Positions 9,001 through 15,000 of a stretch of DNA of 24,432 bases are shown in pieces. This stretch comes from Sulfurimonadaceae bacterium (GTDB taxonomy: Bacteria > Campylobacterota > Campylobacteria > Campylobacterales > Sulfurimonadaceae). The position numbers were made by a program. The stretch is taken from positions 1-24,432 of the forward strand of contig JBFEXS010000023.1 in NCBI GenBank assembly GCA_041562555.1. The letters run 5' to 3'. The stretch's first letter is position 1, and every line of letters starts with the position of its first letter.

Positions 9001-12000
9001 AGATAAAGATCCTGTAGTGAAGCCTGAAAGTGCCAACAAGATTTTCGATATGATCAGTTCGCAAGACAAGCGATTGGAGAGCCTCTCTTCAAACCGCCAC
9101 GTGATTGTCTTGGGTGAGGGAAAAGAGAGAGTCTTTAATTGTGTAAGTGAGTTTATTCAGTCAAAGGCCAAGGACTTTTTTTTATACAAAGCAGATGGAA
9201 TGCGTGAAAAGTGTGATCTGTAATGAGGTGGAAAGATGAGTGAAGAACTGTTTGAATTTGCCGAAGAGAAGCAAGCGAGCGTAAGTTATGATGGATTCTG
9301 GAAGATACTGGTTGTGGATGATGATGAAGAGGTACATGCCATCACAAAAGCAGTGTTGAAAGACTTTGTTTTTGAAGGAAAAGAACTGGCACTTGTGCAT
9401 GCGAATAGTGCGGCAGAAGCAAGGAAGTGCCTGAGCGAACATGAAGACATTGCTCTGATACTGCTTGATGTGGTAATGGAGACAGATGCAGCCGGACTTG
9501 ATTTTGTCGAATATGTACGCAATGAACTCAATAATAAACTTGTACGAATCGTTCTACGTACCGGCCAGCCTGGACAGGCGCCCCAACGCGATGTCATAGT
9601 TTCTTTGGATATCAATGATTATAAGGAGAAAACAGAACTTACCGTTGATAAGCTTTTTACAACGGTGATCGCCTCGATACGTTCTTATAGGGATCTGATT
9701 AATATCGAACATAAGCGTTCGGTTATCGAGCAAAACCGAAAGGGGTTAAAGCAGATCATCGATGCTTCGTCAAACCTGTTTGAGATACATTCTTTACAAG
9801 AGTTTGCGAAGGGTGCACTTACCCAACTGATATCCATTCTGAATCTTGACGAAGATTCTCTGTATTTGAAAGTTGATGGGCTAAGTCTGAGTAAAACCAG
9901 CGACGGTTTTTATGTTTTAGCGGGAACAGGTAAGTACTCACAGTTTGAGAATCAACCGGTGAATCAATACATTGATAATGATCTAAAAGAAAAATTCGAT
10001 CGTGTCCTTGAAGAAGAGAAATCGATGTTTTTTGATGAAGTCTTTATTGGGTATTTCAGGTCAAGTAATGGCAGCATCAATATGATCTATGTAGATGGCT
10101 GTAAGGGACTAACGGACAACGATAAGGGGTTGATCGATATATATTCTTCCAATGTCGCGATAGCCTTTGAGAATCTTTATCTCGATAAGGAGGTCCTTGA
10201 TACCCAGAATGAAGTGATCTCAACACTCAGTGAGGTAGTTGAAAGCCGCTCCAAGGAGACAGCAAATCACGTCAAGCGTGTGAGTGAGTATGCGTATTAT
10301 CTTGCAAGAAAATCGGGCCTTGGGGAGATTGAGAGCACTACCTTGAAATATGCTTCGCCCCTGCATGACGTAGGTAAGATAGGTATTCCAGATAGTGTTT
10401 TGTTGAAGACGACACGTTTGAGCGATGCTGAGTTTGAAGTGATCAAGACGCATACATCGATTGGCTACAGCATCTTGCGTAACTCTAAACGTCCGATACT
10501 TCAAGCTGCCGCAATAGTTGCCCATGAACATCATGAGAAGTTTGATGGGACAGGGTATCCAAGAGGGCTTAAGGGACATGATATTCATATTTATGGTCGT
10601 ATCATAGCGATTGCAGATGTATTTGATGCTTTGTCGCATCGACGTTGCTATAAAGAGGCATGGAGCCTTGAGGAGACCCTGTCCTACATGGAAGTAAATG
10701 CGGGAACGCATTTTGATCCGGTATTGATCAAACTATTTTTATCGGATATCAGCTATATCCAGGATATTATGCGACGCTATTCTGACGAGATCTGAATCAA
10801 GATAAGAGATGTCTGTGTATATAGCGTTTGAAACGTATGATATAGTAGGAAATTCCAAGTTTATTATCGGCTCTTCCCAGGGAAAGGATATCATCAATGT
10901 AGAGTGGAAAAAAGAGTTTTTTAATTCTGTGTAGTTGTTGAAATATTGTATCATCAAGTTTTAGAACAAAGAAAAACTCCATCCATCGAATTCCCCTCTT
11001 CTTTGGTCTTAAGATATAATATTTCGTATATTGCTCCATCACTTCCTGAAACTGTTTGTTAAGTGAACTTTTTTTGAGAAGCCTTTTTGTTTCCTCATCA
11101 GGCATCTTTTGTAAGTAGAGTTCCTGAAGGAGCCGTAAACTTAAAAGATAAATCTTCAGGACTTTCTCCTCTGTGGCAAGTGCATATAGTCTTTTCCAGT
11201 CATATATGTGGTGATATTTATCAAAAAGACGATTAAGATCATTAATCCATTCTATTCGCTCAAAGCGATGTTTGGCTGCATGGATACATAGATACAAAAA
11301 CTCCTCTTCATGATCAAGAATACGCAGCTTTAGCCCTTGTAAAGAAAGGCTTGAACTGTGTTTAAAAAGGGTGGGGGTGTCACCAAAAATCGCAGAAGAG
11401 AAGGCAAAAAGCTTCCAATGGAGTTCAATGACAAGACCGGTTTCCGGATGTACAAAGGAGATATCCGAAAAATGCTCTAAAATATAGGGATTACGAAGTG
11501 CTTCAAGGGAGTGTTCACAACAGTATCCCATCTCAAGAATCACTTCTGAGACTTTTAAAAGGTCTCCCGGTAGAACGAGGATGTCCAAGTCGCTGAAAGG
11601 ACGCAGCCTGATCTCTCCATAGGCGTGTTGGGCTAAGGCTGGACCTTTTATAGAGAGAAGCTCAATATCGTGGTATGTCTTCAGTTTATAGCAGAGTTGA
11701 AGAAGTTGGGCAGTGATGAAAAAATTGCTTTTGGCTATTTTTACAGCTGCATCTTTTATAGCAGGTGCTGATTTGATTTCCTTGATTGCAAGGAGCACTT
11801 CGTATACTAAAGGCAGTACACCATGAGCAATGGCCAGATCAAGTAAAAGAGTTTCATCGATGCCATCATGAAAAATCTCTGAGATTCTCTTCTGTGAGGG
11901 CGTAATCTGAGAGACTTCGAACAGTAGTTCCAATTCATTGCTGAATTTACTCAAGTGAGCTCAATTAAGTGATGACTTTTCAGTTCATTGATGAGCATTA

Positions 12001-15000
12001 GCAGGTCCTGTTCAAGCTGTTGAGGACCTACATCAAACTCTTGCAAGATCAATGTATATGTTTCTTGTAGACTTTTTCCCTCCTGTAGCATATTCACAAA
12101 AAGTGCCCCGACGGGGTTTAGTCCATAATGCTCTTGTGTTTGAATATCAAGCAAAACAGCTTCGTCATCAAAATGTTGGAACATGATATGGGAAGGAAAA
12201 GAAATCTGTTTTTCAAATAGCATGGCTGCTCTTTATACGTGATTTGTGGTGCTGACATATAGCCTCATAGACTTCGTGAAGACGTGTCAGATCCCATGGG
12301 ATATCAATAGAATACACGTCGATAACCTTTGCTATTTTAGCAATTAATTCAAAAGAACGTGCTTTGTTAAGGGGAAGGTTGAAATCAAAGTTATATTGCA
12401 AGGCTTTGTATTTTTCCAGTCCTCGCAATATATTAAAATGGACAGGGTCTTCTTTGGGTGCTTTCCGGAGGACATATATGGCATCGAGTGCCTGTATGCC
12501 CGCAGCAAAATTGTCCACCGAAACGCCCAGATCCTCCATCTTACGATAAGGCCTATGATAGGGATAAGAGGGGACAGAGACGATCTTGTCATCCTGGGCA
12601 AGAAGCGCTACTCTGTCATCGCTGATCATAGTATGGTTCTGTCGGATGAAATAATCCGTCAAAGTCGATTTCCCACCATGGGATGGTGCGATAAATAAAA
12701 CACGATGGTCATTGATCTCAACTCCTCCGGCATGAATAAACTCAAAGATGCCTTCAATCGTTAAAAAGACAGGACACAATGTATGCAAGAACCAATACCT
12801 TAGAAGTTCAGGAGTGCCTTCGGTGTGTAGTTGATATGAAACAACAAAACTACCTTTAGACCAAAAGAAATCAATGACGTCTTTGACACTGAAACACCAT
12901 TGTTGGCCATCAACATTTGACTCAAAGGTGTGGTCCGTGGACAATGATACTTCACGGCCCTGGTTTTGCTGATAGTAAATAACATTTGCAAAACTTCTTT
13001 GAGGTGTGTCTAGGGGTGTTAAAAAGATGGTAGAGGCAGGGCGTTTGCTGTCATCATGAATGGGAATATCGTAATGTATGTCGTGTGCAAAGGCTGTCAT
13101 CTAAAATATATTACCCTGTTCTGTTTTTCATAAGTATAGCGAAAGTGATCCCTGTAGCCATTATAATTCTATCATTTACTGTTGGTTAACTAATTTAAAC
13201 CAGATATAATTAATACTATGCCATAATCAGGCAAAAGTAATCTAGTCTAAAGTTTTGAAATGAGGGTAAGCATGGAAAAAGTATTTGAAAATGACTGTAA
13301 TGAGTCACGTCGTGATCTTTTAAAAAAGGCCTATGTAGCGCCAGCAATAGTGGCTTTAGGCTCGATGACGCTGACAACGAATCTCAGCGGTTCGTCATCT
13401 TTACAGAATAATGGATGGGGAAATGGTGATCAAACAGCACCGGGGCACTCTTTGCCTAACAATGATGCTGAAAACAATTTGCATGGAAAATATCATAATA
13501 AATTTGGTTCTCCAAACCCTAATTAATACTCGTATGTCCCGCAACTGAGATCAGAGTCTTTTCAGGCTTTGACTTTTTCCTTCGTAACAAAGATGGTTTT
13601 TACCACTTCCTTTAGTTCACTTCTGATGTGAATAATGTTAAATATAGATACTTTTAAAGATTAAAGTTTAATTTTTTTTACAAACTAAAGTCAGATTAAT
13701 CTTAACAATATACAATTAAGCATTCTAAACTATGGAGAAAATAATGAAAAAAGTTCTTGTATTACTTGCAGTTCTAGGTTTAAGCTCAGCTGCAATGGCT
13801 GACGCATATACAAAGTGTGCTGGTTGTCACGGTGCAAACGGTGAGAAAAAAGCTCTTGGTAAAAGTAAAGTGATCGCTGAGATGGCTAAAGCTGATATCG
13901 TTGCTGCACTTAAAGGTTATAAAGACGGTTCATATGGTGGTCCAATGAAAGGTCTTATGAAAGGTCAAGTTGCTGCACTTAGCGATGCTGACATTACTGC
14001 TATCGCTGAAAAAATCGGTAAATAGTAAATTCTTTCTTCCATGTGCGGGTTTTAAACCTGCACACTTCCATTAAACTTTCTATATTTTATCATTCGCTTT
14101 CATTAACAAATCTTTTTAATTTTTGATTTTTAACTCAGGAAATTGACCCAACTATTTACTACTAAAATAGTTGGTCTATAGGAGGATTGGATGATTAGGT
14201 TTATTTCTCGCTGATAAGTTCTGTAATAATATGATGCTGTAGGTCTTTGTCCTTGATCCCATGCTCTTTGGCTTCCGAATAGATGTGTGAAACCTTTTGG
14301 TTGTTCTTGTCATAATCAAAATGAGGAAAGTGGTTTTTCCATGCTTTGATAATGAGTTGTTTCGAGATCTGTTCTATCAACCATGATTTGAAAAGAGCAA
14401 AAGTAGAAAAAAGCATGATTGTGATTATAATAGAGAGAATGATGAGTGCATGACAATCGATTTTTGCTAACAAGGAATGAAAGATAATAGAGGGGGGAGT
14501 GGTGATCAAAAACAGTAAAATGACGAAGACAAGATATAAACGTGCCAAACGAATGCGAAAACCGGTCATATTGTACTCGAGATTCATGCCGTCATTATAG
14601 ATCTTATTGGCATTCATCAACTCGGTAAAGCGCATTGGTTGATCAGAGAGCTTAAAAACAAAGGGAGTGATCTTTGATTGAACAAAGTTTTTAAGGATAT
14701 CTTTCGGTGCAGCAAAAAGGCCCATCTTTTCTTTCTTTCAGTTTAATTTTGTGTATTATACCACTTGTATGAATTAATGCTGTATAATCTTGAAAATTTT
14801 TAGGAGTGATGTATGATAAAAGCGAGTGCACGTCATATTTTAGTGGATAGTGAAGAACAGTGCTTGGCACTTAAATCGGAGATTGAATCAGGAAAAGATT
14901 TTGCTGAAGTTGCAATGCAAAACTCCGCATGTCCATCCAAAGCTCAAGGCGGGGAACTGGGTGAGTTTGGACCGGGACAGATGGTACCAGAGTTTGACAA

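Follow-up and report, generated by a model that had tools for sequence, protein, structure and literature searches.

The cluster described here has its nearest counterpart in the lppA-K-B-S-D-N clusters for Linear Polyphosphorylated Peptides (LPP) that are known from Bacillota (Popov et al., Nat Commun, May 2026, PMC13381572), and in the excerpts of that paper drawn on here LPPs are called restricted to Bacillota. As set out in those excerpts, LPP clusters combine an HprK-like kinase, a discrete PqqD-type RiPP recognition element (RRE) with a tyrosine-binding Asp and a PF14907 nucleotidyltransferase, have no macrolactam cyclase, and encode one to three precursors, whose leader is conserved and contains Y-x-x-P-x-[LVI] and whose cores, 35-200 aa long, vary greatly. 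They often lie within capsule or exopolysaccharide loci beside a tyrosine autokinase, and phosphorylated-lasso clusters are often nearby. The phosphorylated lasso peptides themselves (paeninodin with PadeK, ThcoK, SyanK; pseudomycoidin with PsmK/PsmN) have a homologous kinase with, in the literature excerpts used, identical invariant His/Lys/Asp/Asp, a PF14907 partner, a B1-type RRE and a leader with Y-x-x-P-x-L-x-x-x-G. Tat signals show S-R-R-x-[FL]-L-K, a moderately hydrophobic uncharged stretch and an A-x-A often preceded by a basic residue and Pro, and REMPs such as TorD and DmsD are small dedicated cytoplasmic proteins that bind the signal region before export. All of these features recur in, or are predicted for, a locus of a marine sulfur-oxidizing bacterium and its relatives. 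The NCBIfam HPr-rel-A system (TIGR04352 HprK_rel_A, TIGR04353 PqqD_rel_X, TIGR04355 HprK_rel_B) similarly pairs an HprK-related kinase with a PqqD-family chaperone; scores of 20.1 against a cut-off of 200, 16.8 against 35 and 14.3 against 200, respectively, place the present locus outside it.

The window, the whole 24,432-nt stretch analysed, belongs to a genome that is 89% complete in 137 contigs, and the four ORFs that a preliminary description had placed in it are all present in those positions. On the minus strand the first gene encodes an HprK-like P-loop peptide kinase resembling LppK and PadeK (295 aa, 12213-13100), followed by a discrete PqqD-type RRE resembling lasso B1 proteins and LppB (90 aa, 11951-12223; Pfam PqqD 3.9e-14) and an NTP_transf_5 (PF14907) nucleotidyltransferase resembling LppN and PsmN (385 aa, 10797-11954; Pfam 1.9e-47), whose start codon is TTG. 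As the kinase stop and PqqD start overlap by 11 nt, and the PqqD stop and nucleotidyltransferase start by 4 nt, the three form one operon. A promoter-like site upstream of it (13160-13189, minus strand, 10/12 matches) is weak, since such sites are as numerous in the region as expected by chance. Divergent from the operon, on the plus strand, is the peptide ORF (13260-13526), within which the ATG at 13272 was chosen as start: GAGGG lies 6-10 nt upstream, and the resulting product (13272-13526, 84 aa plus stop) agrees in length with its relatives. A search for RNA runs found none. Directly after the peptide stop is a terminator-like hairpin and T-run (13551-13582, plus strand); with two such sites in the region and 2.4 expected by chance, only its position is suggestive. 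The cluster lies outside any polysaccharide locus, while about half of its relatives are inside one.

Matches of the kinase to Pfam Hpr_kinase_C (5e-4) and TIGR04352 (2.7e-4) are both sub-threshold, and a profile of 26 homologues retrieved only HPr kinase structures from the PDB (best 3.8e-5). Residues H106, H123, G142-G143-K144-S145, D161, D162, R183 and R186 are invariant in 26/26 homologues, which agrees with the His-Lys-Asp-Asp motif that the excerpted part of PMC9266682 gives for lasso kinases. The RRE matches lasso_PqqD NF033530 (4.5e-12) and the known B1 proteins TbiB1 (8.5e-10), TfuB1 (1.4e-4) and PbaB1 (4.3e-3). Its D73, invariant in 15/15, corresponds to an Asp in TbiB1 and TfuB1 and to a Gln in the Trp-binding PbaB1; in LppB and in the B1 proteins of actinobacteria this Asp forms a hydrogen bond with the Tyr of the leader (for LppB, PMC13381572 as excerpted). 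The nucleotidyltransferase is an intact ORF like the other three. Its residues G104-x18-D123-x-D125 fit the pol-beta-type nucleotidyltransferase signature. Both lppN and pbaN are PF14907 in the portion of the PMC13381572 supplement used, and LppN reportedly had no activity in the published LPP system.

The leader of the peptide (residues 1-40, 13272-13391, plus strand) consists of a twin-arginine motif, S12-R13-R14-D-L-L-K18-K19 (13305-13328), and an RRE-type motif, Y21-x-x-P24-x-I26-x-x-x-G30 (13332-13361), with an uncharged stretch from A20 to T36. R13, R14, K18, P24, L29 and G30 are invariant in 21/21 peptides, with Y and P of the motif invariant or nearly so, and 60 unique peptides give the consensus RRxFLKK-(A)A-YxAPxLxxLG, with 62.5% identity in the leader versus 29.1% in the remainder. 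Among 143 motif-bearing representatives RR is present in 141, a hydrophobic stretch without charge in 133 and a strict A-x-A in 102; exceptions among relatives include KR in 2/47 and one peptide (genome G061, locus L093, 9965-10153) with E and K within the stretch. Past YxxP nothing in the leader relates to the LPP consensus as excerpted, and the leader carries the twin-arginine consensus, the uncharged stretch and the A-x-A site. Of 43 Tat-like N-termini in the genome, which encodes TatC, TatA/B and LepB, solely this one has YxxPxLxxxG. The comparison supports a leader in which Tat-signal anatomy, the twin-arginine consensus plus uncharged hydrophobic stretch, is joined to the Y-x-x-P motif bound by lasso and LPP RREs. 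The Tat-type leader of the preliminary description is borne out in its anatomy, and its choice between an RR motif as RRE element and as Tat signal was a false one, as two separate, adjacent parts of one leader are involved. The match to TIGR01409 TAT_signal_seq is 12.6 bits (cut-off 16.7), and those to lasso_cyano/DUF5972 and every other family model are weak and also below cut-off.

In 70/102 relatives A-x-A ends exactly 10 residues past the motif Gly, and in the window peptide, which has no strict A-x-A, L38-S39-G40 occupies that place, so that the leader would be cut between G40 and S41. The predicted core (residues 41-84, 13392-13523, plus strand) opens with S41-S42-S43-L44, followed by a conserved module, N46..N69 (13407-13478), found once or twice in nine locus peptides; S42, S43, L44, G50 and D53 are invariant in 9/9. 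Ser is at +1 in 39/102 relatives, and Ser or Thr within +1 to +3 in 78/102, against about 47 expected from an S+T content of 18.6%. LppK targets Ser3 of its core, according to the excerpts of PMC13381572. At least four unrelated core types exist in the family, and the ‘tiny family’ of the preliminary description is true for this core only (eight others found), the leader being present in 590 protein clusters of 1.84 billion. For lasso and LPP kinases the only target sites known to us are a C-terminal Ser and Ser3, and the site proposed below is a guess.

Among 80 kinase loci of GTDB genomes at least 37 have an RR-leader peptide, where only two other loci with peptide and kinase had been counted before. 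A lasso cyclase is present in 2/37 of these versus 36/43 of the loci without such a peptide, B2 in 1/37 versus 25/43, and the cyclase-free layout occurs in at least 35 loci. Its RREs form their own 21-member clade (support 97/94). The adjacency of peptide and kinase spans several gene orders and three phyla: in addition to Campylobacterota there are single cases labelled Thermodesulfobacteriota and Methyloprofundus, in contrast to the Bacillota of LPPs as excerpted. Strong peptide-profile matches (E <= 1e-10) in 401 Campylobacterales genomes came from 12 other genomes, each of which also belongs to the 22 that have a strong kinase homologue, though kin genomes are not independent and such counts overstate support; in its own genome the profile had no match besides the window peptide. 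In the closest locus the kinase is 55% identical and the layout divergent as in the window.

Neither a lasso cyclase nor a B2 protease was found in the whole window, and Transglut_core3 gave no match above cut-off in the whole 89%-complete genome, in agreement with the earlier statement that no cyclase or leader protease is near. The sole strong Asn_synthase match in the genome was rejected as a lasso cyclase: the 599-aa protein begins with the nucleophilic Cys that true glutamine amidotransferases have, and its context is unrelated. The SipW-like signal peptidase LppS that LPP clusters have in the excerpts is likewise absent from the window, with none of its type in the genome and none conserved in related loci, and their MsbA-like exporter is rare here (2/37 loci). 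Unlike phosphorylated-lasso clusters, which are present in sister genomes, the window cluster has no cyclase, B2 protease or ABC exporter, and its peptide ends in N rather than Ser and has no acidic residue positioned for ring closure.

How the leader is used can be read in more than one way. It might act only in recognition by RRE and kinase, the twin arginines and hydrophobic stretch of an LPP-like linear modified peptide serving enzyme binding, and export and leader removal being by Sec, an unlinked exporter or none. Y-x-x-P-x-L-x-x-x-G is a known RRE ligand and LPP cleavage by a signal-peptidase homologue is RRE-dependent and works cell-free (both from the PMC13381572 excerpts); moreover, lasso-type leaders of the same clade are likewise basic before the Tyr, a few relatives depart from RR or the uncharged stretch, and the Tat-signal models stay below cut-off. 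However, charges inside Y..G occur in 9/9 of those lasso-type leaders versus 6/60 here, so the uncharged stretch is not demanded by RRE binding alone. Recognition only also leaves unexplained the full S-R-R-x-F-L-K consensus in 141/143 and the fixed-distance A-x-A, and ABC exporters, present in 19/43 loci beside lasso-type kinases, are in 2/37 of these loci; we regard it as possible but doubtful. A further reading, in which the peptide would be an ordinary small protein, secreted by Tat or Sec, that happens to lie beside enzymes acting on another substrate, is improbable, even with peptide and kinase on different contigs in four genomes and polysaccharide genes around many related loci offering possible other substrates. 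The kinase is in 12/12 genomes with the peptide, the two are adjacent across the gene orders and phyla noted above, and the leader has an RRE motif foreign to the genome's other Tat-like N-termini. Whereas the signal peptide is as a rule the faster-evolving part of a secreted protein, here it is the leader that is conserved.

Descent from lasso clusters raises two further readings. The kinase falls within a clade with lasso-cluster kinases (support 100/99), and one conserved chromosomal site has a full lasso cluster in some genomes and only peptide, kinase and PqqD in others, as would suit a decaying phosphorylated-lasso remnant that lost cyclase, protease and exporter and whose product is no longer made. 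With all ORFs intact, catalytic residues invariant, the cyclase-free layout so widespread and its RREs a separate clade, core positions 7-9 from any plausible cut free of Asp and Glu, and leader features gained that lasso leaders lack, decay is very improbable. Slimmer still is the chance that the product is a true lasso peptide and that the genes for its cyclase and B2 protease are in an unassembled part of the genome; the incomplete assembly would permit it and the RRE is lasso-type, but complete or 99%-complete relatives of the same layout have no cyclase at the locus, and the core has no ring-forming acidic residue in register.

The best reading is of a lasso-derived, cyclase-free ribosomal peptide of LPP type in a Gram-negative form, and the comparative evidence makes the peptide the likely substrate of the operon's enzymes, as the preliminary description had it. 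We hold it somewhat probable that RRE-guided Ser phosphorylation, perhaps then decoration, in the cytoplasm precedes Tat export and LepB cleavage. Gene content, conserved motifs, co-occurrence, the near-exclusion of cyclases and the presence of Tat and LepB genes are seen in the sequences themselves, and each biochemical step is inferred. The PqqD-type RRE would bind the 84-aa precursor via its Y21 to G30 motif, the kinase would phosphorylate at least one Ser near the core start, with S42 and S43 of G-S-S-S-L as candidates, and the PF14907 enzyme may attach a further group to the phosphate. In view of the leader's Tat anatomy, the general Tat translocon is proposed to export the modified, hydrophilic, unstructured peptide; substrates that are small and unfolded are tolerated by Tat if they expose no hydrophobic stretch, according to the excerpted part of a review (PMC13673990). 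Housekeeping signal peptidase I would then remove the leader, probably at G40/S41. By analogy with REMPs the RRE may have a gating role before export, though here a short unstructured peptide takes the place of the cofactor enzyme as cargo, and the binder is of PqqD fold and not of the TorD family.

Although a new ribosomal-peptide class had been suggested, the same cyclase-free set of kinase, discrete RRE and PF14907 enzyme is published as LPP (PMC13381572, as excerpted). What is new is the Tat-type leader, the layout that does without a dedicated peptidase and exporter, and the occurrence outside Bacillota; the leader would stand in for the two proteins that do these tasks in Bacillota LPP clusters, which are SipW-like and MsbA-like respectively.

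The cluster has three overlapping minus-strand genes and a peptide gene that diverges from them. Their order is HprK-like kinase (295 aa; 13100-12213), PqqD protein (90 aa; 12223-11951) and PF14907 nucleotidyltransferase (385 aa; 11954-10797, with a TTG start); the overlap is 11 nt between kinase stop and PqqD start and 4 nt between PqqD stop and nucleotidyltransferase start. The peptide ORF lies 160 nt upstream of the kinase and is read from the plus strand. From its second ATG at 13272, which has GAGGG 6-10 nt 5′ of it, it encodes 84 aa, the length of its relatives, and a hairpin with a T-run (13551-13572) comes after its stop codon. 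Directly 3′ of the peptide gene, past that terminator-like hairpin, is a 97-aa monohaem cytochrome c with a Sec-type signal (13732-14025, plus strand) that shows no sign of cluster membership. Plus-strand positions 1-10795 hold a beta-oxidation set (AMP-binding ligase, thiolase, FadB-like hydratase/dehydrogenase and long acyl-CoA dehydrogenase), a 731-aa acyltransferase/alpha-beta-hydrolase fusion and an HD-GYP-type response regulator with DUF3369, its end 1 nt short of the stop of the nucleotidyltransferase gene. On the other side are a 187-aa protein of two near-identical tandem PpiC-type rotamase (parvulin) domains (14813-15376, plus strand) and a minus-strand operon (15360-19015) for a TgpA-type transglutaminase (TgpA_N, Transglut_core and DUF4129), an unassigned 323-aa ORF and a MoxR-type AAA_3 ATPase, which looks ordinary and unrelated to the peptide cluster.

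The window's kinase, RRE protein and PF14907 enzyme make up the core of the clusters for Linear Polyphosphorylated Peptides (LPPs). As described by Popov et al. (Nat Commun 2026; PMC13381572), these clusters encode, along with the precursor, a kinase of the HprK type, an RRE as a discrete protein, a signal peptidase I resembling SipW, an exporter resembling MsbA and a PF14907 NTP transferase. They occur among the capsular polysaccharide genes of Bacilli, where paeninodin-type lasso clusters are often neighbours. The same paper has the kinase placing up to four phosphates on core Ser3, the RRE binding a leader Y-x-x-P-x-V with an Asp hydrogen-bonded to the Tyr, leader removal by the signal-peptidase homologue being RRE-dependent, and the transferase showing no activity. 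Its authors regard LPPs as restricted to Bacillota, and the terms twin-arginine, signal peptide and Gram-negative are absent from its text.

The window kinase shares the HprK-like character of LppK, as judged by a PDB profile and invariant residues: it only weakly matches Hpr_kinase_C (5e-4), a profile of 26 homologues finds only HPr kinases in the PDB (best 3.8e-5), and H106, H123, the P-loop G142-G143-K144-S145, D161-D162, R183 and R186 are invariant in all 26. In lasso-tailoring kinases a His-Lys-Asp-Asp motif is conserved and mutationally essential, according to a review (PMC9266682). Membership of the HPr-rel-A system was rejected on score. The PqqD protein (Pfam PqqD, 3.9e-14) has a D73 that is invariant in 15 of 15 sequences and aligned to the Asp of TbiB1 and TfuB1, while the Trp-binding PbaB1 has Gln at the site; its profile matches LppB (9x8z_B) at 7.2e-9 and TbiB1 more strongly, at 1.6e-22. 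The window RRE keeps the Asp that, in the LPP RRE, binds the leader Tyr. The nucleotidyltransferase matches NTP_transf_5 (PF14907) at 1.9e-47 and carries G104 and D123-x-D125, and LppN is also PF14907 in the supplement of PMC13381572. Since the trio is the LPP enzyme core and the RRE Asp is kept, the proposal of a new class in the preliminary description does not hold and the cluster is an LPP variant; the class is already known, as LPP. From the LPP leader consensus YxxPxVLxHQxIxFETxxS the window family shares only the Y-x-x-P-x-[LVI] part, the SipW-like peptidase LppS is absent from both window and genome, and the MsbA-like exporter LppD is absent from the window and present in just 2 of 37 related loci. 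LPP clusters have no macrolactam cyclase and the window is alike in this, by gene absence in an 89%-complete genome. What is new, as far as sequence goes, is a Gram-negative, Tat-leader, peptidase-free and exporter-free variant, together with the size of the leader-defined family.

The genome is in 137 contigs, and in the 89% that is represented neither a lasso cyclase (C) nor a transglutaminase-like protease (B2) was found, bearing out, for the window and for the genome at that completeness, the earlier remark that no cyclase or leader protease is near. The sole strong Asn-synthase match in the genome, a 599-aa protein encoded on contig C46, starts with the catalytic Cys of real amidotransferases; with that N-terminal nucleophile, unrelated genes around it and no RiPP neighbours it was rejected as a lasso cyclase. 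There is no Transglut_core3 match above cut-off in the 89%-complete genome, the sole weak one being the TgpA-type protein at 15360-17297, which was rejected as the missing B2 because it is a membrane protein of 645 aa and has an N-terminal domain of its own. Neither an ABC transporter nor an S26 peptidase is among the window ORFs, the SipW-type model TIGR02228 matches nothing in the genome, and the only Peptidase_S26 match there is the housekeeping one on contig C2. Genes for TatC, TatA, TatB and LepB are present in the genome. The sequencing runs listed for it are four DNA runs of one study, with no RNA run among them.

The N-region consensus of Tat signals is S/T-R-R-x-F-L-K, and the window peptide has S12-R13-R14-D-L-L-K18. 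For 60 unique peptides the leader consensus is R-R-x-F-L-K-K-[AS]-[AV]-Y-x-A-P-x-[LVI]-x-A-L-G, with the window having one residue fewer between KK and Y, and judged by these motifs the leader is a Tat consensus in its first half and a lasso/LPP RRE motif in its second. R13, R14, K18, P24, L29 and G30 do not vary among 21 aligned peptides and L17, K19 and Y21 hardly do, and RR is found in 141 of 143 motif-bearing cluster representatives. A20-T36 of the window peptide is uncharged, as is the hydrophobic stretch of 133 of these representatives. A strict A-x-A, often preceded in relatives by Pro and a basic residue, is present in 102 of the 143 and ends exactly 10 residues past the motif Gly in 70 of those 102; the window has no strict A-x-A, and L38-S39-G40 is at the homologous place. 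Among the 60 unique peptides pairwise identity is 62.5% for the leader against 29.1% for the rest, which is the pattern of RiPP precursors and the opposite of that of ordinary signal peptides. The RRE motif is present in just one of 43 Tat-like N-termini found by pattern in the genome, that of the window peptide, and is therefore not a habit of this organism's signals. No Pfam or NCBIfam family, curated Tat and lasso models included, matches the peptide above cut-off: its score with TIGR01409 is 12.6 bits (cut-off 16.7), and 11 of 21 family members match that model at E ≤ 1. In the ESM Atlas it falls with unnamed clusters at 0.93-0.95, and Tat-substrate families are at 0.79-0.82, below a usable score. 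A literature search, at the level of its result listings, gave no report in which precursors of RiPP, lasso or LPP type are linked with a twin-arginine leader.

In lasso-type precursors of the same clade, charges occur inside Y-x-x-P-x-L-x-x-x-G in all 9 of the listed cyclase-adjacent ones, with further examples besides, against 6 of the 60 RR-type leaders (those with the twin-arginine), and because the lasso-type leaders share the motif yet carry charges in it, the uncharged stretch seems dispensable for RRE binding. That the RRE has no need of the stretch, that an A-x-A mostly follows it and that the loci are without the LPP peptidase and exporter all argue for selection of the signal-like features in their own right. 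The alternative, that the leader is a recognition element and not an export signal, stays alive and is fitted by the variants among locus peptides: KR replaces RR in 2 of 47, and charges sit inside the stretch in L093 (9965-10153, genome G061; Glu and Lys) and L092 (8786-8953, genome G005; Lys). These last two peptides are unlinked to a kinase, and their leaders may be intermediates between lasso-type and signal-like ones. For an export role, a recent Tat review (PMC13673990) has the pathway tolerating small unfolded substrates without exposed hydrophobic stretches, and dedicated chaperones using Tat signal peptides as platforms for maturation.

The peptide family had been called tiny, and for the family that shares the core this stands, with 8 others in the 5.8-billion set; the leader family is not rare. 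Against 1.84 billion cluster representatives the peptide profile gives 590 matches at E ≤ 1e-3, of which 74 reach ≤ 1e-10; nearly all are 46-143 aa long, and 143 of the best 150 representatives have the full motif. A kinase search of 401 Campylobacterales genomes, from which 24 loci were fetched, shows the same N-terminus in small kinase-adjacent ORFs of L036, L040, L047 (two), L048 (two), L049, L050, L051, L054, L058 and L059. In the same 401 genomes the peptide profile matches at E ≤ 1e-10 in 12 others, all 12 belonging to the 22 in which the kinase has a strong homologue and 4 of them with peptide and kinase on separate contigs, figures that are descriptive as kin genomes are not independent. 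The nearest relative, L094, is from a MAG labelled Sulfurimonadaceae and has a 55% identical kinase and the same divergent peptide.

A scan with the kinase alignment, in which each GTDB species was represented by one genome, gave 80 loci, 37 of which have an RR-leader peptide by a strict pattern and 4 more by a relaxed one; one locus each bears the label Thermodesulfobacteriota (L164) or Methyloprofundus (L165). With many loci cut by contig ends the gene counts are lower bounds, and in them a lasso cyclase is found in 2 of the 37 RR-peptide loci as against 36 of the other 43, the B2 protease in 1 against 25 and an ABC exporter in 2 against 19; the reverse tendency is seen for PqqD (26 against 18), the PF14907 enzyme (15 against 3) and polysaccharide export or tyrosine-autokinase genes (19 against 3). 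The arrangement seen most often, in entries that carry the labels Sulfuricurvum and Arcobacter, starts with polysaccharide export and tyrosine autokinase, goes on with an RR peptide, the kinase, PqqD and the PF14907 enzyme, and closes with another RR peptide and then glycosyltransferases. Genes specific to RR loci are those for CpsB/CapC phosphatase, WecG, ManC, Gmd, NUDIX and GT1, with no peptidase or exporter among them. The window and L094 are not in a polysaccharide-type locus. Of the 41 RR-peptide loci, 16 encode a 250-440-aa protein (clusters c11/c28, some with DUF4214, for which no informative family was found) that none of the other kinase loci has. It comes after a large protein that looks secreted and has P-domain, Laminin_G_3 or H-lectin domains, and the two are directly beside the RR peptide in L051 (6833-9568), L054 (3823-6821), L091 (11140-14284), L058 (5657-8804) and others, and the loci that have it are mostly without the PF14907 gene.

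In the kinase tree the window is in a clade with lasso-cluster kinases (support 100/99), inside which its place is unresolved. In the PqqD tree the window and L094 are a pair (100/99). A single clade (97/94) unites 21 of the RR-associated proteins, the others being mixed with lasso B1 proteins, and 7 changes account for the RR label there, against 14.5 in shuffles, with none of 500 shuffles as low. Judged by these trees, the cyclase-free system was derived from lasso systems, and probably repeatedly. The two systems are side by side in L036 (7558-7761 and 13619-13813; genome G169), with the order lectin-like protein, c11, RR peptide, first kinase, ABC exporter, B2, second kinase, cyclase and lasso-type precursor, and a single PqqD in the ORF list for two precursor types. 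In sisters of G169 the same site, between GTP cyclohydrolase II and GidB, has the lasso part only (L045, L046) or the RR part only (L051, L054).

Cutting at the place of the relatives' A-x-A, the predicted mature window peptide is S41-N84, which is hydrophilic along its whole length and opens S-S-S-L, with S42, S43 and L44 invariant in 9 of 9. No Asp or Glu is at core positions 7-9, where a lasso ring requires one; the first invariant acidic residue, D53, is 13 residues past the predicted cut, and its spacing from S-S-S-L differs between relatives. For representatives with A-x-A the commonest +1 residue is Ser (39 of 102), and Ser or Thr is within +1 to +3 in 78 of the 102 against about 47 expected from an S+T content of 18.6%, which would echo Ser3 of LppA as a parallel and not a demonstration. 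There are at least four unrelated core types. Beyond its opening residues the window core consists of a conserved module, N-N-G-[WFY]-G-N-G-D-Q-x-A-P-G-x-S-L-x-x-N-x-A-E-N in consensus, for which no known family was found. Nine locus peptides have the module in one or two copies, with S-[ST]-[LF] a few residues upstream in all 9, and it is also present in 19 of the best 150 representatives. It occurs twice in one precursor, the copies split by a second conserved stretch, in L047 (8044-8442), L134 (6104-6607) and L136 (8313-8759); the doubling suggests a repeat unit and not a single bioactive peptide.

The best-supported reading, with somewhat better than an even chance for its whole chain, is the mechanism of the preliminary description, whose observation is borne out and extended. 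In it the kinase would phosphorylate the precursor under RRE guidance in the cytoplasm, perhaps with a later decoration, and the peptide would then leave through Tat and lose its leader to LepB. That the kinase acts on the window peptide under RRE guidance is its most secure part and very probable; Tat export with LepB cleavage is reasonably likely. A bolder reading, somewhat less likely than not, gives one 40-residue leader two successive roles: the PqqD-type RRE would hold the precursor by it for the kinase and nucleotidyltransferase, and once released it would be a twin-arginine signal with which the phosphorylated, perhaps phosphoglycosylated, unstructured peptide goes to Tat and then to signal peptidase I, with the RRE timing export to completed modification in the manner of a Tat proofreading chaperone.

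RiPP precursors normally lose their leader to a cluster-encoded protease and then exit through cluster-encoded ABC transporters. A leader that is also a Tat signal would be a cheaper export route, and one suited to phosphate or sugar-phosphate groups, as these require installation in the cytoplasm and could hinder Sec threading. If the bolder reading is correct, this would be the first ribosomal natural-product pathway in which Tat and LepB replace a dedicated exporter and protease, and phosphorylated peptides would be delivered to the envelope or exopolysaccharide matrix of Campylobacterota. Tat biology would gain natural substrates that are small, unfolded and possibly phosphorylated, and a dedicated Tat-signal-binding protein of a new fold class. 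The LPP family would extend from Bacillota to Gram-negative sulfur oxidisers, and there would be added to it a superfamily that is defined by its leader, numbers at least 590 sequence clusters, has many unrelated cores and is tied again to the capsule or exopolysaccharide loci where LPPs also occur.
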